DNA of 64,000 nt from Patescibacteria group bacterium (lineage in GTDB: Bacteria > Patescibacteriota > Minisyncoccia > UBA6257 > JACRHW01): contig JAGWJP010000001.1 of assembly GCA_028865725.1 (NCBI GenBank), positions 207,143-271,142 of the forward strand, written 5' to 3'. Shown one piece after another: positions 1,580 to 55,201 of the stretch. Position numbers and translations under genes: made by a program. The stretch's first letter is position 1; each line of letters starts with the position of its first letter. Below the pieces are notes generated by a model. It made no database searches. It saw nothing but the letters and a program-made list of their open reading frames with translations, and was not told the origin of the DNA.

Positions 1580-2622
1580 AAGAGAACACGAATAATGGAT
1601 ATCAGAGCATACGAAAAAGGGTTTTGAAGAAAAGGGTTTTCAACCACTTCTTTTCAAAACCGCTCTTGTTTCCCGATGAGGCGGTTTTTAAAAATATGAC
1701 GATTGGCTATCCAGTTCTCCGACTTTGAAAGAGGGTGGAGAACTGGGAAGCGAATCAGTGACGGAGGAAGGACTGGTGTTTGAAAAGTGAACATATTTCG
1801 TAAATCGCATTTTCCCAGCTTATAAGGTGTAAACCATATAAGCGGGTTATCTCTTTTATGAGGAAGCAATTCTTCATAATAAGAAAATCAAACGATTTCC
1901 CTAAGTCCTCATGACATGCAAATGTGATGAGGCAGCGTTGAATGTAGAAAGACTCTTCCAAGTCTGTTCAACGTGTAATATCTATCTAGTTGGATACGGG
2001 TAATAGTAAGGGCACACGGTGGATGCCTAGACACTAAAAGGCGATGAAGGACGTAGCGTAGCTGCGATAAGTTTCGGGGAGGTGTGTAGCAACCTTTGAT
2101 CCGGAAATTTCCGAATGGGGCAACCCAGCACAGCAAACCTGTGTTACTTCGATATTAATAAATCGAAGGGCAAACCTGCTGAAGTGAAACATCTCAGTAA
2201 GCAGTGGAAAAGAAAAAATGTACGCGAATTTATACTGGCGTACAGGATGGCACATGTCATCGCGTCGTCAGTATAAATTCGCATTATTTCCTCAGTAGCG
2301 GCGAGCGAACAGGAAAGAGCCCAAACTTATTAGTCCTGAGTTTATCGAAGGATTGATAAGGGTTGTAGGGGAAAACACTCAATGTTTTAATTGTTCTGTA
2401 TCGGTCTTGTGCTTACAAGACTGGGAGAACAATTAGAACGTTGTAAAGAGTTACAAAATGAGTTCTTAGCTGAATCTGCCTGGAAAGCAGAGCCAAAGAG
2501 GGTGATGGCCCCGTAAGCGAAAAGAATTTCATCTCTTGTTTTTATCCCTGAGTACACCGACAAACGAAAGCGTTGGTGGAAGCATCCCACACTACAGGGA
2601 AAGGCTAAATACTTTTAGTGAT

Positions 2623-2659
<37 letters not shown>

Positions 2660-3748
2660 TAGGCCGGGAGGCCGATGAAATAGAACCTGAAACCGTGTGC
2701 TTACAAGGAATCGGAGCCCCCCACCATTTTTACTGATAGGCGTTGTTGTCTTCTTCTCTGTTGAAAAGAAGACAATAGCGTAAAATCAAAGATGCACTAT
2801 TGGTGAAAATGGTGGGGGGTGACGGTGTGCCTATTGAAGAATGAGTCAGCGAGTTATCCTGCATTGCTCGTTTAACCCCGCCCCACTTTTATGAAAAATG
2901 TTGTTGTACCAGCATTGAGTAATAGTGCATAACTGGTCTCTTTTGGTGGAGGAGATATCATGTTGTAGAAGTGGGGCGGGGGAAGGCAAAGCGAAAGCGA
3001 GTCTGAATAGGGCGTCGCATTTTCTAAGTTTATACGTTTTTGTCGCAAGACCGAACGTATAGACTTGGGATTTTGCAAGCAGTGCGGGCTAGACCCGAAG
3101 CCGGGTGAGCTTGCCGTGGCCAGGATGAAAGTCGACGAAAGTCGACTGGAGGTCCGAACCGGTTGGTTGTGCAAAACCTTCGGATGAGCTGCGGTAAGGA
3201 GTGAAAAGCTAATCGAACTCGGTAATAGCTGGTTCTCTCCGAAATAGTTCTAGGACTAGCCTTGGGACAACTACGTGTGGGGGGTAGAGCACTGGATGAA
3301 GGGTAAAGGGCTTCGGCTCGGCCGTTCAATCAAACTCCGAATACCCATACGACTATCCTGGGAGTCAGACAGTGGGGGCTAAGCTCCATAGTCAAAAGGG
3401 CAAGAACCCTGATGTTCATCTAAGGTCCCTAAGTTTTGACTAAGTGTAAAGGAAGTGACAAGCCGAAGACAGATAGGAGGTTGGCTTAGAGGTAGCCATC
3501 CTTTAAAGATTGTGTAACAACTCACTATCATATCCCTCACCTTTCGGTCGTAGATTTTTGTCAGATTAAGTTATTATTTTCTTATTTCTGATTATCAATG
3601 TACGTTCGAAAGGTGAGGGACTGGCTTGTTGCGCCGAAGATATATCGGGACTAAGTCAAATACCGAAGATAACAATTCCGTGCCTCACTTTTGTGTATAT
3701 ATGTATAAAATATAAGGAAATCTATCGAAATTAAGAAAAGGGATTTAT

Positions 3749-3885
3749 GTGGAGGTAGCTCAATTGGCAGAGCTTCAAGGAGGTGGTTCGTCATCATGCG
3801 ACGGGCAAGTGTGCGCACGCTTACCCGTAGCAGACACCTGCTAAAACCTTGAAGGTTCGAGGTTCGAATCCTCGCTTCCACACCA
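3749..3885 (+). ncRNA. tRNA-like element with genomically encoded CCA, embedded in the helix-45 intervening sequence of the 23S rRNA
   Basis: The acceptor stem is GTGGAGG/CTTCCAC with one G-U pair. U8 and A9 are present. The D-arm is GCTC-AATTGGCA-GAGC. The T-arm is CGAGG-TTCGAAT-CCTCG. Discriminator A and CCA follow. The anticodon-arm position (TCAAG...CTTGA) carries a ~68-nt structured insertion (AGGTG...CACCT, ACGGGCAAG...CTTACCCGT), so no normal anticodon loop exists. Confidence 0.5.
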
Positions 3886-5234
3886 GGGAAGCAGCGTCTT
3901 CCCTCCCTTTTCTTGGTTTTGATAGTGAAAATATATCCATAAAAGCGAGGCACGGTCTGGTAGGAGAGCATTCCAAGGGCGTTGAAGGTCAATCCGCGAG
4001 GAAGACTGGAGCGCTTGGAAGAGAGAATGCTGACATGAGTAACCGCAAGCACGATGAGAATTCGTGCCCCCGCAAATCCAAGGTTTCCGTGGCAATGGAA
4101 GTCAGCCACGGGTTAGGCGGCCCTAAGGCGATGGCGAAAGCCGCAGCTAATGGACAGCTGGTTAATATTCCAGCCCTCCGACATAACGTTCGATGGGGTG
4201 ACGAAAGAAATAAATGGGAGGGGATCAATGGTTATTCCCTCATTTGAGCTGAGAATGGTGTATTAGGAAAATCCGGTACACTATCTTTAATGATGGCATT
4301 CGGGCTTCGATGAAAGCGGGGATTATATTCTCGCGATTCCCGTGAAGAGCTTTCCAAGAAAACCCTCTAAGAATTAAGGTATGGCGGACCCGTACTGTAA
4401 ACCGACACAGGTGGATGAGGCGAGTAGCCTCAGGGGAACGGGTGATTTCTCGTTAAGGAACTCGGCAAAAAAGCGACCGTAACTTCGGGATAAGGTCTGG
4501 CTCACGCAAGTGAGCCCGCAGCTAAAGTTTCTCTGGCGACTGTTTACCAAAAACACAGCTCCCTGCTAACTCGTAAGAGGATGTATAGGGGGTGACGCCT
4601 GACCAATGCGAGAAGGTTAACGGTGGCGGTGTGTGCAGCACTTAGTTTGTAAGTAAGTAACGCTTATCAATTAAGTGCTGTGCATGCTAACTGCCCGAAG
4701 CCCTCGTCAATGTCGGCGATAACTATAATCGTCCAAAGGTAGCGCAACTCCTTGTCGGGTAAGTTCCGACGTGCATGAATGGCGTAACGACTGGAGAACT
4801 GTCTCAACGAGAAGCCCGGTGAAAGTGCGACACCAGCGAAGACGCTGGTACCCTATAGCGGGACGAAAAGACCCCGGGAGCTTTACTGTAGCTTGATATT
4901 GGGTTTACGTTCTAATTACGTAGCGTAGTGGGGAGAGGTTGAAGGTTTGATTTCGGTTGGACTGGACTCGTCAATGAAACACCCATTTTTTAGAATGTAT
5001 ATCCTAACCTTTGCGGAAAAACCGCAGGGGGACAGTGTCTGGTGGGCAGTTTTCGTGGGGCGCGATCCTCCCAAAGAGTAACGGAGGAGTTTATCAAGGT
5101 CAGCTTAGCCTGGATGGAAATCAGGCTGGACGTGTAAAGGCACAAGCTGGCTTAACGGCAAGGCTTACAAGCCGCGCCGATGCGAAAGCAGAACTTAATG
5201 ACCCGATGGCACTTTGTAGAAAGGCCTGAGACAT

Positions 5235-5270
<36 letters not shown>

Positions 5271-5401
5271 GGTCCGAGCGTCCCTAGCGACGACCAGGTT
5301 CGGCACCTCGATGTCGGCTCATCTTATCCTGGGACTGAAGAAGGCCCCAAGGGTTTGGCTGTTCGCCAATTAAAAAGATACGCGAGCTGGGTTCAAACCG
5401 T

Positions 5402-5850
5402 TAAGAGACGGACGTTATGAACATGAATCATATCGCTCGGTTTTTTAACAGTTTGAACCCCGAGGAAAAGACATGAGTCACGGCGGCATCTAAACATTTG
5501 TTTAGTGTAAAGTTAACTTATATCGGTAGAATCCACTCATCAATGGACAATACCGAGGGAACAATGCAAAACTCAAAATGCAAAATTATGAAGATATGAA
5601 AATGTGCATTTTCATATCTTCATTTTAAACTTTGAGATTTACTTTTTACATTTAAGTATCATGAAATGACACGATTGGCCCGTAGAGACTACACGTTAAC
5701 TATTCCTAAATAGAAAGACTCGAACTTTTAAGGGAAAGTTCGTTCGATCTTAAAGATTTAGGAAGAAAGATATAGTCCAATACACTTAGTAATAAGTGAA
5801 AACAACCACTGAGCTTTTATTCTTACGAGAGTTGAAGTGAAGTAATATGC
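5402..5850 (+). other. ~450-nt ORF-less insertion in 23S domain V, a candidate group I intron or large intervening sequence
   Basis: The conserved sequence GGGTTCAAACCGT ... GTGAGACAGGTTGGTCTCTATCTGC corresponds to E. coli GGGUUUAGAACGUCGUGAGACAGUUCGGUCCCUAUC at ~2586-2615. It is split by ~450 nt of AT-rich structured sequence containing a perfect 16-bp hairpin, GAAGATATGAAAATGTGCATTTTCATATCTTC. No ORF longer than 60 aa is present. Confidence 0.35.
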
Positions 5851-5992
5851 GTGAGACAGGTTGGTCTCTATCTGCTATAGGCGTTCGAAACTTGAGAGGA
5901 GTTGCCCTTTGTACGAGAGGATCAGGGTGAACGAGCCTCTGGTGTATCGGCTTTCATACCAATGGAATTGCCGAGTAGCTATTGCACGGAAG

Positions 5993-6025
<33 letters not shown>

Positions 6026-6195
6026 CACCTCAAGATTAGGTTTCGTGGTTCGACGCGAGTCGAACGAAAGACCCCTTGAAGATGACAAGGTTGATAGGCT
6101 TCAGGTGTAAGGCCAGTAATGGTTTCAGCCGAGAAGTACTAATAGGTCGAACTTCCCGTATCCAACTAGGTTGATATTGGAAAATTTATTTCTTT

Positions 6196-6310
6196 GGCGC
6201 ACTGCTTTGTCAGAAGCTGCGTTTCTCGCTCACTGTACTTTCCTCGTACAGCTCGCAAGAAGCCTTGCTTCTTTCGCGCATTGCATCCAAATAAAATAAA
6301 TTTTCAGGAT
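6196..6310 (+). repeat. dispersed structured repeat, copy A, in the 23S-5S spacer
   Basis: TGCTTTGTCAGAAGCTGCGTTTCTCGCTC-[hairpin CTGTAC..GTACAG]-CTCGCAAGAAGCC..TTCTTTCGCGCATTGCATCCAAAT. It is about 80% identical to the copies at 9880 and 25925. Confidence 0.6.
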
Positions 6311-6418
6311 CGGAAGTTGTTTGTTGATTCCAAGGTTCATTTGCCTTGGGTAGAAAAAATGCGGTCTACGAAATATGGCTACTGTTACTGAGATCGTACC
6401 ACACATTTTTGGTATTGA

Positions 6419-6538
6419 TCTCTTGGTGATTTAGCGTTCTAGGAACCACCTCTTCCCATTCCGAACAGAGTCGTGAAAATAGAAAGCCCTGATGATACTG
6501 CTTGCGCAAGCGAGGGGGAAAGTAAGGTTTGCCGAGAG
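6419..6538 (+). rRNA. rrf: 5S ribosomal RNA
   Basis: TCTTGGTGATTTAGCG...CCCATTCCGAACAGAG...GCCGAGAG. The CCGAAC loop C motif is present and the terminal helix pairs. It lies 250 nt downstream of the 23S. Confidence 0.75.
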
Positions 6539-6647
6539 TTCAATATCCGAAATGTGTGGTATTTTTTAGCTTTTAGGAATGAAGTTGACTTTTTGAGGAG
6601 ATGTGATATACTACTAACTAGTATCCGAAAGGAAGGAGCATGATCTC

Positions 6648-9089: not shown

Positions 9090-9866
9090 ATGAGTCGAAC
9101 CGCGAAACAAACCATCATTATTGCGATTTATCTTGCTCTTATCGGGAGCATCGTGTTTGGCGTGTATTGGATTTGGTTTAGGCCTATTCCTTCTTGTTTT
9201 GACCACAAACAGAATCAAAACGAAACGCAAATTGATTGCGGGGGAGTTTGTATGCCGTGTGAACTGAAATATCCTAAACCGCTTGAAGTGGTATTTGCAA
9301 AAAATTTGCCGCGTTCTACCTCCCAAAGCGATGTGTTCGCCGAACTCAAAAATCCCAATCTCACCGTCGGCGCTTCCGAAGTTGATTATCATATTACCTT
9401 GTACGGCCATTTTGATGAAGTGCTTGGCGAGCGGGATGGAACGACGTTTGTGTATCCCGGAACCTCTCATTATGTGTATGAGCCTGCATTTGCAATCGGC
9501 GCGACAAACGTGGGGCGTGTCGACTTTGCTATTACCAATGTCATTTTTGAGCCTCAAGATAAGTTTTATTTTTCAGATCTTCAGGCAACCGGTGTCGCGC
9601 TTGAAAAGAATAATGATGTGGTTCGTCTTACCGGCACGGCGCGCAACGGAAGCGATCTTACGATTGATAATCTTTCTGTGGTCGGTATTCTCTATGACGG
9701 CGATAAGCAGAATGTTCTTGCAGTGTCCTCCACACTTTTAAAGACCGTGTTAAGCAGAGAACAACGTTTCTTTGAGATTTCATTTCCTTCCTCATTGCTT
9801 CAGTTTGTTCCTCTGACAGGAAAAGAACCTTTTGATATCGAGCTGTCCGCACCACCTCTCCAATAG
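9090..9866 (+). CDS. hypothetical membrane-anchored protein
   Basis: 258 aa with an N-terminal transmembrane helix (IIIAIYLALIGSIVFGVYWIWF) followed by a soluble domain. Confidence 0.5.
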   Translation: MSRTAKQTIIIAIYLALIGSIVFGVYWIWFRPIPSCFDHKQNQNETQIDCGGVCMPCELKYPKPLEVVFAKNLPRSTSQSDVFAELKNPNLTVGASEVDYHITLYGHFDEVLGERDGTTFVYPGTSHYVYEPAFAIGATNVGRVDFAITNVIFEPQDKFYFSDLQATGVALEKNNDVVRLTGTARNGSDLTIDNLSVVGILYDGDKQNVLAVSSTLLKTVLSREQRFFEISFPSSLLQFVPLTGKEPFDIELSAPPLQ

Positions 9867-9879
9867 TAAACTTCCACAT

Positions 9880-9990
9880 TTGACGTATTGCTTTGTCAGA
9901 AGCTTCGTTTCTTGCTCGATGTACGGTAGTGAGTACACCTCGCAAGAGTACTCGCTTCCTTCGCGCACTGCATTCAAATGTGAAAGTTTT
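9880..9990 (+). repeat. dispersed structured repeat, copy B
   Basis: TTGCTTTGTCAGAAGCTTCGTTTCTTGCTC-[hairpin]-CTCGCAAGAGTACTCGCTTCCTTCGCGCACTGCATTCAAAT. Same orientation as the upstream gene. Confidence 0.6.
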
Positions 9991-10237
9991 TTGTTCGTAG
10001 ATTAATGTTGAGAGGTCGAGAAGTATTGTTTGCGCGGTTGCCTGGGGCTCAGGTGTTTCCTCGAACTGCATCCCTCACCTTTAAACAAAGGGGAGGGATG
10101 CATCCGAATACGTGGATTTATAAATTCAAAATCTATGTAAGGTTGTGTTATGTAAGTGCCCCATATCCTTTAAGTGAGATGGGCTGTTTTTACAAAATAC
10201 GAGATTTTTTATACTATATCATACACAATACTCATTT

Positions 10238-24824: not shown

Positions 24825-24888
24825 ACGATGAAAACGTTTCTGAACACAAGATATATCTTGTGTTCAGAAAATTATTTACTGTAGAGAT

Positions 24889-25914
24889 ATGAAAAAACAA
24901 AAAGAGGAAAAAAAAGAAAAAGAAGATAAAGGTGGATTGCAAGCTATTATCGACGAGCTTAGGGAAAAGTTTGGCGAGGGCGCGATTATGACGCTTGGCG
25001 AAGCGGAAAAAGTTGATGTGCGGGCGATTCCTACCGGTTCATTGAGTTTGGATTTGGCGCTTGGGGTCATGGGTGTTCCTCATGGAAGAATTATCGAGAT
25101 CTATGGTCCTGAATCGAGTGGTAAAACTACGCTTGCACTGCATATTGTTGCAGAGGCACAGAAGAAGGGTGGTAAGGCTGCATTTATTGATGCAGAGCAC
25201 GCACTCGATCCTGAATACGCGCGTCGTATTGGTGTAAAGCTCCATGAGCTTTTAATTGCCCAGCCTGATAACGGAGAAGAAGCGCTCAATATTTTGGAAG
25301 CATTAGTACGTTCCGGGGATATTGATGTATGCGTGGTTGATTCCGTAGCCGCGCTTACGCCAAAGGCAGAAATAGAAGGAGAAATGGGACAGCAATATAT
25401 TGGGCTTCAGGCGCGCCTTATGTCCCAAGCATTGCGTAAATTAACTGCAATTACTGCTAAGTCAGACACGATCATTATTTTCATCAACCAGATACGTTCC
25501 CAAATAGGAACAGTGATGTTTGGCAACCCAGAGACGACCCCTGGAGGAAGAGCATTGAAATTTTATGCGTCAGTGCGCCTTGATGTGCGCCGCATCGCTC
25601 AAATTAAACGAGGGGATGATATCATAGGCAATCATGTGCGCGTGAAGGTGGCAAAGAATAAAGTCGCCCCTCCATTTAAGGTTGCCGAGTTTGATATTTT
25701 TTTCAACAAAGGAATAGTGCCAGAGACTGAATTGCTGAATCTTGCCTTGAAGTATGGGATTGCAACAAAATCCGGGGCATCTTATAGTTATAACGGCGAG
25801 CGCTTGGGGGTAGGTATGGATGCGGCTTCTGAGGCATTGAAAGAGAACCAAAAAGTGAGAAAAGAGGTATTGGAAAAGGTAAAGGCAGCGTGGAAAGACC
25901 AAAACAAGTTTTAA
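24889..25914 (+). CDS. recA: recombinase RecA
   Basis: Contains GPESSGKTT, ...FINQIR..., and the L2 loop. Confidence 0.97.
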
Positions 25915-25924
25915 AAATTAATTC

Positions 25925-26040
25925 TGTTAGCACATTGCTTTGTCAGAAACTACGTTTTTGCTCATCGTGCGTTTTAGCACGTCTCGCAAAAAGCCTCATT
26001 TCTTTCGCGTCGCGCATCTCATCCGAACCTGCAAGCTTTT
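25925..26040 (+). repeat. dispersed structured repeat, copy C, after recA
   Basis: TTGCTTTGTCAGAAACTACGTTTTTGCTC-[hairpin CGTGC..GCACG]-CTCGCAAAAAGCCTCATTTCTTTCGCG.. Compensatory changes TTTTTGC/GCAAAAA here versus TTCTTGC/GCAAGAG in copy B. Confidence 0.6.
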
Positions 26041-26125
26041 CCCACCAGACGTTTCTTATGTGTGGTTTGAAAAAATTCATTAAAGTTTAAAATGTTATTC
26101 AAAGAAATAAGAACCTGTTTCTTGT

Positions 26126-36824: not shown

Positions 36825-36961
36825 CTTTTATGGTGTACTATAAAATAGTACCAGCCTTTCAGTCCGTTTGGCAACTTTTGCTCTCAAACATTGAGGTTGC
36901 ATAACATTGTTATTTTCGGTAAAACTAGAGATGCAAAAGATATTAGTGAGAGTAGACTAGA

Positions 36962-37009
36962 GATCTGTGTCCGCCTGTAGCTCAGTCCGGTTAGAGCACG
37001 GAGCTTATA
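36962..37009 (+). pseudogene. tRNA-Ile(UAU) 5'-half duplicate (leader + acceptor/D-arm/anticodon-stem 5' side)
   Basis: ATCTGTGTCCGCCTGTAGCTCAGTCCGGTTAGAGCACGGAGCTTATA is identical to the 5' part of the complete gene at 37032-37079, then diverges. Confidence 0.6.
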
Positions 37010-37040: not shown

Positions 37041-37115
37041 CCGCCTGTAGCTCAGTCCGGTTAGAGCACGGAGCTTATATCTCCGCGGTCCCAGGTTCGA
37101 ATCCTGGCGGGCGGA
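37041..37115 (+). tRNA. tRNA-Ile (anticodon UAU), no CCA encoded
   Basis: CCGCCTG-TA-GCTC-AGTCCGGTTA-GAGC-A-CGGAG-CTTATAT-CTCCG-CGGTC-CCAGG-TTCGAAT-CCTGG-CGGGCGG-A. U8 and A9 are present. The anticodon loop has U33-UAU-A37. Confidence 0.7.
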
Positions 37116-37159
37116 CACATCTTTTTAAGTGAAACGAACACAGGCGTTATATCGAAGAT

Positions 37160-37207
37160 ATATCTTCGCGGTCCCAGGTTCGAATCCTGGCGGGCGGACA
37201 CAGATCT
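37160..37207 (+). pseudogene. tRNA-Ile(UAU) 3'-half duplicate (anticodon-stem 3' side through trailer)
   Basis: TATCTTCGCGGTCCCAGGTTCGAATCCTGGCGGGCGGACACA matches the 3' half of the complete gene with one substitution. The trailer ACAGATCT is the inverted complement of the leader AGATCTGT at 36961. Confidence 0.6.
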
Positions 37208-37382
37208 GTAAGTATGGTTGAATGCAGATAATCATTGTGTTTTGTACGGCAGTTATCGCATCTGATGCAATTGCAGTATAAGCAAGAGAAGTGAGACAAA
37301 AACGCAACGATGTGCACCTGTGTCATTTACAAAATACATCAGATACGGCATATATTATTTAGGAGAGGAGGTGAGATGAACG

Positions 37383-54046: not shown

Positions 54047-55201
<1,155 letters not shown>

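Follow-up and report, generated by a model that had tools for sequence, protein, structure and literature searches.

Three related hairpin-forming sequences lie in a 64,000-nucleotide stretch of the genome of a Patescibacteria group bacterium (assembly GCA_028865725.1, contig JAGWJP010000001.1; the whole stretch is called the window here), and the question that they raise is whether they are structured RNAs serving the host or repeats that come and go at intergenic sites. An initial annotation, made from the sequence alone, had described them as a dispersed three-copy repeat on the + strand with a shared core, each copy on the sense strand immediately 3' of a gene end (copy A after the 23S rRNA gene, copy B after a 258-aa gene, and copy C after recA), and had suggested a terminator, a processing element or a small non-coding RNA family. 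Alignment, profile search and a covariance model all recover the repeat and its core, and the placement holds for all three genes. The copies belong to a wider family with one common hairpin, which is upheld by compensatory change; copies are gained and lost among genomes and homogenised within them. With moderate confidence, the copies are explained as members of a family of co-transcribed interspersed palindromic repeats, specific to one Parcubacteria clade and similar to REPINs (hairpins built from doublets of repetitive extragenic palindromes, REPs) or to MITEs (small transposable elements of the miniature inverted-repeat type). The family is undescribed by sequence and familiar by kind, and it is not a proven member of either group.

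Ten independent loci, three in the window and seven from related genomes and metagenomes, make up the family together with two disrupted copies, and at least seven related genomes or metagenomes are represented (loci outside the window carry labels beginning with L; Table 1). Members were collected from recA and FtsW homologue loci in relatives and from one pattern scan of metagenome contigs, which returned 43 loci, 6 of them real members and 37 chance matches without a hairpin or profile score. The recA gene of the window is identical to that of a Patescibacteria metagenome-assembled genome (GCA_028868355.1, contig JAGWUQ010000001.1), and the closest relatives of the recA-bearing genome are Parcubacteria/Paceibacteria, a placement that fits the large insertions in the 23S gene, the lack of an upstream 16S gene and the compact genome. 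The contexts of the copies are unrelated and include the 23S-5S spacer, positions after recA, S18, the 258-aa gene and other hypothetical genes, and the spacers between ftsK and a helix-turn-helix (HTH) gene and between hsp20 and dnaK. A gene-specific riboswitch or leader was rejected on account of these unrelated contexts and of the position of the copies, mostly downstream of genes.

Each element is one long imperfect hairpin (approximately 40-45 bp, 125-135 nt), and the consensus over the ten loci is a single hairpin of 40 pairs. Its outer stem, about 12 bp long, evolves fast. The basal helix, in which TTTGG-C-GCA pairs with TGC-AT-CCAAA, is conserved, and so is an asymmetric internal loop in which CTTYGTCARA faces TTYCBYG. 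The middle stem has two genome-specific versions (one in the window copies and L025, the other in the remaining loci), and the apical hairpin, helix 5 of the consensus, is variable, with double changes across loci in 6 of its 7 pairs. Although it stays paired, the outer stem diverges no more slowly than third-codon positions, and the loop and basal blocks are nearly invariant across genomes. A largely unpaired 5' block of the window copies, TGCTTTGTCAGAA, for which the relatives' counterpart is TACTTCGTCAAA, has columns that are invariant in three alignments and sits in the internal loop of the consensus structure.

Covariation in this hairpin is strong and became highly significant once the ten loci were aligned. 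Standard pairs fill 89.2% of the 399 cells of the alignment, and 28 of the 40 pairs carry a change at both positions, together in 66 cells. In 500 column shuffles, the observed value was never reached on any of five covariation measures, two of which are robust to relatedness, and pairing was 32-45% in controls with the 3' partners slid by 1-3 columns. Within the window, the compensatory pair TTCTTGC/GCAAGAG versus TTTTTGC/GCAAAAA pointed out in the initial annotation is real, although it belongs to the middle stem and not, as stated there, to the outer one; a different self-complementary apical hairpin was correctly described for each of the three copies. Copy A folds at -35.1 kcal/mol (z = -4.65; complementary strand -44.0 kcal/mol, z = -5.3) and copy B with z = -3.16 (complementary strand z = -4.87), and for single-sequence folds of family members z ranges from -5 to -10. 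Copy C folds no better than its shuffles (z = -0.4), and 17 of its 36 consensus pairs are non-Watson-Crick.

The initial annotation had taken covariation to argue for selection on RNA structure. The covariation stands with ten loci; a function of the sense-strand RNA is not singled out by it. Nearly every pair is Watson-Crick and G.U intermediates are few, so the signal fits either strand equally, and both DNA and RNA. In all copies tested, the complementary strand has the more stable fold (by 5.5-16 kcal/mol for single sequences, and at -48.8 versus -35.6 kcal/mol for the alignment), and two loci, L025 and L008, are inverted relative to their flanking genes. An invariant U.G pair on the complementary strand stands where the sense strand has C.A, and with copy C excluded there are 11 A.C cells versus 5 G.U cells, plus one invariant C.A; as a guide to the functional strand, this wobble-pair asymmetry leans towards the complementary one, with too few independent events to decide.

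Two explanations that leave the transcript aside can be weighed on the same evidence. The element could act as a DNA-level site, either as a cruciform or as a nucleoid- or gyrase-type binding site of the kind proposed for REPs and bacterial interspersed mosaic elements (BIMEs), with both strands important and its transcript irrelevant. The nearly complete Watson-Crick pairing (9 G.U and 18 A.C cells among 324 on the sense strand), the folding of both strands, the occurrence of both orientations and the extragenic location of all copies are in keeping with such a site. We nevertheless regard it as improbable: the conserved asymmetric loops and bulges are needless for a plain palindrome or cruciform, nothing points to a binding protein, and genome-specific variants and nested and decayed copies are explained no better than by a repeat family. 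It is very unlikely that structure is under no selection at all, the quasi-palindrome being kept by template-switch correction or arm conversion and the copies being simple duplications. The 66 double-change cells against approximately 8 single-side G.U intermediates form a pattern of templated correction, and L004 and L056a share 42% identity in the outer stem, compared to 61% at third-codon positions, so that this stem changes at about the neutral rate or faster. Such correction would erase mismatches, yet every intact copy retains the same bulge (C.A and an extra base) and the same asymmetric loop across saturated divergence. Conservation of the core also far exceeds that of neutral sites, and copies occupy unrelated loci in several genomes.

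In the window, a search with a three-copy nhmmer profile matched these three sites only (E = 1e-35 to 3e-41), and a repeat finder returned the three copies as the top direct-repeat family. The 16-mer TGCTTTGTCAGAAGCT, allowing up to 3 mismatches, also matches in the window at these three sites only. The covariance-model search found further copies in relatives and no fourth copy in the window or approximately 8 kb of adjoining contig. The hairpins extend 10-15 bp further out than was first marked, with additional outer-stem arms GAAAATTTATTTC / AAAATAAATTTTC in copy A (6180-6305) and AAACTTCCACA / TGTGAAAGTTT in copy B (paired from 9868 to 9989). Whole-element pairwise identity among the three copies is 59-70%, below the 75-80% of the initial annotation, and mean column identity in the three-way alignment is 79%. 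Copy C carries a 5-nt insertion and an eroded outer stem. Copy A lies between the end of the 23S gene (6163) and the start of the 5S gene (6421), and the gene upstream of copy B is a called 258-aa gene (9090-9866) without Pfam domains. Separate from copy A, and downstream of it, the 5S gene is enclosed by an inverted repeat of 30 nt with 83% complementarity, presumably a 5S processing stem.

Among themselves, copies A, B and C share 59-70% identity, but with the same-site copies of other genomes only 44-52%; as judged from these alignments, the similarity of copies tracks the genome and not the site. The apical hairpin CGATAGTAT..ACTATCG is common to L056a and L062, both at the recA site, and L058, at the 258-aa gene site. 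Outer-stem variants likewise recur at unrelated loci, both in L062 (AAGACTTACGCG) and L051 (AGGACTTACGCA) and in L019 and L011. That the core was inserted into the loops of pre-existing palindromes or terminators was rejected as a general rule on this recurrence and on the absence of solo outer palindromes. A composite copy with a nested palindrome of about 60 nt, AAGAAGTTCAACTTCC...GGAAGTTGAACTTCTT, in the apical loop occurs at two non-orthologous loci, and its two instances are 88% identical. In the recA-site copy of L008, an unrelated 150-nt palindrome, GAACAGTATAACAAAACCC...GGGTTTTGTTATACTGTTC, has replaced the 5' half, and the 3' half and the shared flank remain; this remnant, copy C and L056b are decayed or truncated copies. 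Directly after the element in L062, a run of N is followed by GACGTGTGCTCTTCCGATCT, which we take to be Illumina adapter sequence, and this stretch may have arisen as an artefact of assembly at the hairpin.

The element occupies a given orthologous site in some genomes and is missing from it in others. The 3' end of recA carries the element in the window and in the clade of L004, L008, L056 and L062 (as a remnant in L008), and a short canonical terminator instead in L057. After the 258-aa gene, the site is filled in the window and in L058/L059 and empty in L060 and L061, which have canonical terminators there. The 23S-5S spacer measures 257 nt in the window, where it is filled, and 79 nt in L061, where it is empty, and the alignment of the two spacers stops exactly at the start of copy A. 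FtsW is 83% identical between L058 and L061, whereas the window protein shares only 59-62% identity with any of these; two gains at the 258-aa gene site are therefore more parsimonious than one gain and two losses.

These patterns show the behaviour of a small non-coding element of the REPIN or MITE kind. Copies are gained and lost at intergenic sites, typically directly past a stop codon, at places that hold an ordinary terminator in relatives; copying or homogenisation within a genome leaves all copies with the variant of that genome; and copies decay or are struck by other palindromic elements. A trans-acting protein would recognise the folded single strand, as DNA during spread and as RNA once transcribed, and hairpin integrity and loop sequences would be kept because of this recognition. 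All copies of the window are inside transcription units, in the sense orientation on the leading strand, and must therefore be transcribed, and the long duplex in 3' untranslated regions and in the 23S-5S pre-rRNA spacer would be expected to behave as a passive 3' hairpin or as an RNase III substrate. Copy B and its orthologue in L058 probably also terminate transcription, because the conserved TTTTTTGT follows the stem in both; at the copy B site, this adjoining U-tract may be that of the old terminator.

Several observations weigh against a mobile repeat family. The flanks of the compared copies have no consistent target-site duplication, and a TA pair flanks L051 only. The termini, in the outer stem, are the least conserved part of the element (27-79% identity), unlike classical MITE terminal inverted repeats. 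No Y1/RAYT transposase occurs among the Pfam-annotated gene calls, which cover the window, the approximately 8 kb of adjoining contig and the homologue loci of relatives (the metagenome-scan loci carry no gene calls), and only 3 copies are present in about 72 kb of genome. Conservation of the loop and basal sequences extends to genomes with saturated synonymous sites (third-codon identity of 39-42% to the window), which a host function explains equally well. The start of most copies is 0-10 nt past a stop codon, about 8 of the 10 loci have the orientation of the upstream gene, and the recA site is filled, with the hairpin intact, throughout a clade whose third-codon identity is 53-61%. Loop conservation, stop-codon placement, orientation bias and alternation with terminators fit a domesticated host function equally well.

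It is possible, if tentative, that the element is instead a cis-acting RNA of gene 3' ends that functions for the host, a long hairpin with a protein-recognised loop that serves as a processing, stabilising or terminating signal; its position would be held by selection, and the genome variants would come from co-evolution with a factor or from gene conversion. The strong covariation and the conserved unpaired blocks favour this explanation, as do the stop-codon placement, the co-orientation and the constancy of the recA site described above, the alternation with an ordinary intrinsic terminator in relatives at three sites, and the same U-tract after copy B and its L058 orthologue. On the other hand, termination would do harm in the 23S-5S spacer that holds copy A, and no T-run follows this or most of the other copies; in L051, a canonical terminator already precedes the element; L025, an intact copy, and L008 are inverted; the complementary strand folds better; and close relatives lack the element at the same sites while decayed and truncated copies persist. 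Ordinary short terminators are used elsewhere in the genome, and a terminator scan did not call the elements. An obligatory terminator was rejected on these ordinary terminators, on the position of copy A without a U-tract and on the upstream terminator of L051. GC skew is positive throughout the window; a role for replication direction in setting orientation was also rejected, since only 7 of 11 copies follow the GC-skew strand, no better than the match with transcription.

A more specific proposal, which we consider unlikely, is that the family has been domesticated as a clade-specific 3'-end signal in which the loop (CUUYGUCARA / UUYCBYG) of the RNA or single-stranded DNA hairpin is read by a dedicated trans-acting protein. 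If true, the element would substitute for intrinsic terminators or set points of RNA processing or decay, a factor co-evolving with all copies of a genome would explain the genome-specific variants, and a new protein-dependent terminator or processing system would be present in organisms whose gene-expression machinery is minimal. The small RNA family considered in the initial annotation, in the sense of independently transcribed RNA genes, is given almost no weight here. The structure is stable and covarying, and it has no coding potential. However, with copies directly adjoining stop codons there is no space for a promoter, and nothing promoter-like was found ahead of them. No terminator follows them consistently, copy A lies inside the rRNA transcript, and several copies are decayed.

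Database searches did not connect the element to a described family. No Rfam family matched the elements in the window and 9 related loci at the gathering threshold, and permissive E-values gave only chance-level matches of microRNA type (E > 3). A two-anchor pattern scan of viral contigs had no match, blastn against plasmid and phage records found nothing similar, and TGCTTTGTCAGAARCTNCGTTT gave a single chance match, in an unrelated gammaproteobacterial coding region, in a genome-contig collection without the source genome. A concatenated six-frame peptide query, covering spurious open reading frames over the repeat, returned nothing at E <= 1 from a protein collection. A match to a known MITE or REP family, which the initial annotation had kept in view, is not found by sequence, although the behaviour of the element is of the REP/MITE type. 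In the literature on Patescibacteria and Parcubacteria, no description of interspersed repeats, MITE-like elements or structured RNA motifs was found.

Among known systems, the closest match is the REPINs, with MITE-like elements a looser likeness. REPINs are mobilised by RAYT transposases in Pseudomonas, Escherichia coli and others, and a REPIN system is recognised by REP arms that form the most abundant extragenic 16-mer, a single-copy RAYT (PF01797) and tens to hundreds of copies. Like REPINs, the present element is extragenic, about 100 nt long, and has two imperfectly inverted conserved arms that form one long hairpin; it also shares with them compensatory changes, lineage-specific variants, insertion into or beside one another, and the lack of target-site duplication. 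It differs in that its arms have, on reading, no convincing internal palindrome, in having no sequence similarity, in its Patescibacterium host, in the absence of RAYT/Y1 from the gene calls available for a partial genome, and in its low copy number as seen; no solo arms occur in the window. REPINs themselves are extragenic REP doublets that form hairpins in single-stranded DNA or mRNA, in which compensatory changes are common; their lineage-specific populations are maintained by vertical descent, and elements insert next to or within each other (PMC3116915).

The MITE-like families (ERIC/IRU, Correia/NEMIS, RUP/BOX/SPRITE and the Rickettsia palindromic elements) are similarly non-coding dispersed repeats of 100-150 nt with inverted symmetry, mostly intergenic, found at gene 3' ends, co-transcribed as RNA hairpins and prone to nesting. 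Bacterial MITEs are co-transcribed, serve as substrates of RNase III or RNase E, and can resemble terminators (PMC10969869), and the hairpins of ERIC/IRU, Correia, RUP/BOX/SPRITE and Rickettsia elements are cut by RNase III or RNase E or are terminator-like (PMC10969869; PMC2229807). Terminal inverted repeats are conserved in these families, and a target duplication, TA or another, is usual, whereas the termini of the present element vary more than any other part of it, no duplication was found, and it resembles none of these families in sequence. With 125-135 nt and 10 loci, the element falls within the usual MITE size (below approximately 500 bp) and is non-coding, multi-copy and polymorphic in its presence at orthologous sites; no parent insertion sequence was found. 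Intrinsic terminators are comparable as hairpins immediately downstream of a gene, as shown by the canonical terminators of relatives at orthologous sites and by the U-tract after copy B and L058, but the AT-rich stem here has 4-5 times their length and contains conserved internal loops, a U-tract is mostly lacking, and copy A lies inside the rRNA operon; a canonical terminator was rejected on defining features of this kind. An integron attC site was rejected: RYYYAAC/GTTRRRY end motifs are absent on reading, the neighbours are rRNA and housekeeping genes, and no integrase is among the gene calls.

Patescibacteria have very small, streamlined genomes. A hairpin family that persists, turns over and is homogenised would indicate that REPIN-like 'sequence populations' exist in minimal genomes as well, and relatives carry at least two further palindromic families. 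One of these dispersed hairpin repeats, with the core GGTGTTGTCAACCCCGA...GAGTTGGGTTGACAAC, is unrelated to the studied element, occurs three times in 6.6 kb of L004, is not present in the window and has no Rfam family. The family could be of use for strain typing, for finding the mobilising enzyme, and for examining how transcript 3' ends and the rRNA spacer tolerate or exploit long duplexes. It also carries a caution for annotation, in that strong covariation in a dispersed hairpin is not by itself a sign of a functional RNA gene. No general concept is changed by the finding. Coordinates are collected in Table 1.

Table 1. Positions of the hairpin element, its relatives and other features, in the window or in the locus named.
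Feature	Location	Positions	Strand	Remarks
Copy A	Window	6180-6305	+	Complete long hairpin within 23S-5S spacer
Copy B	Window	9866-9989	+	Complete long hairpin from stop codon of 258-aa gene; ftsW/rodA (10238) downstream
Copy C	Window	~25914-26040	+	Degenerate copy from recA stop codon (recA 24889-25914)
Covariance-model match, copy A	Window	6174-6312	+	122.5 bits
Covariance-model match, copy B	Window	9860-9999	+	117.7 bits
Covariance-model match, copy C	Window	25907-26048	+	77.8 bits
5' block TGCTTTGTCAGAA	Window	6203-6215 (A), 9889-9901 (B), 25936-25948 (C)	+	
Apical hairpin, copy A	Window	6233-6251	+	CTGTAC-7 nt-GTACAG
Apical hairpin, copy B	Window	9920-9937	+	GTAC..GTAC
Apical hairpin, copy C	Window	25966-25981	+	CGTGC/GCACG
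T-run TTTTTTGTT	Window	9987-9995	+	Directly 3' of copy B closing stem, read from sequence
Members at recA 3' site	L004/L038 (strain variants L007, L035); L056a; L062			
Member after 258-aa-gene orthologue, before ftsW	L058/L059			
Members after other genes	L011, L019, L051			
Member in hsp20-dnaK spacer	L025			Inverted relative to both genes
Disrupted copy, ftsK-HTH spacer	L008			Inverted
Disrupted copy, after S18	L056b			3' half lost
Remnant 3' half, recA site	L008			
Nested ~60-nt palindrome	L008; L056	3070-3244; 4706-4830		In apical loop of two copies
150-nt hairpin	L008	5015-5170		Replaced 5' half of recA-site copy
Other dispersed hairpin repeat, core	L004; L008; L056; L035	765-778, 3918-3931 (-), 5198-5211; 5296; 1506; 1414		
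N run and GACGTGTGCTCTTCCGATCT	L062 (CAYHFS010000030.1, GCA_964355965.1)	4063-4090		Directly after repeat element
23S gene	Window	1994-6163		
23S long inverted repeats	Window	~2717-2819, 2876-2981, 3533-3620, 3722-3925, 5389-5460, 5588-5623		
30-nt inverted repeat around 5S	Window	6397-6426 / 6532-6561		
34-nt palindrome	Window	24837-24870		
tRNA-Ile(TAT)	Window	37041-37116		
5'-half copy of tRNA-Ile(TAT)	Window	36958-37009		96%
3'-half copy of tRNA-Ile(TAT)	Window	37159-37213		91%
GAAAGTA tandem array	Window	55145-55200		

Other features of the window were observed alongside the element. The 23S gene is 4170 nt long against a model of 2925 positions, and therefore contains approximately 1.2 kb of insertions; it includes several long inverted repeats, and Rfam called no group I or II intron there. 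No 16S gene is present in the 1993 nt upstream of the 23S gene, which indicates that the rRNA genes are unlinked. Upstream of recA, 18 nt before its start and after an HTH_25 gene, stands a perfect 34-nt palindrome, TTTCTGAACACAAGATATATCTTGTGTTCAGAAA, that could be an operator or a bidirectional terminator; it is not at that place in L004, L008, L056 or L057. The gene for tRNA-Ile(TAT), which adjoins a tRNA-Ser gene on the other strand, is flanked by copies of its own 5' and 3' halves and looks as if it were nested in a split duplicate of itself. Lastly, the heptamer GAAAGTA forms a tandem array of about 8 copies.

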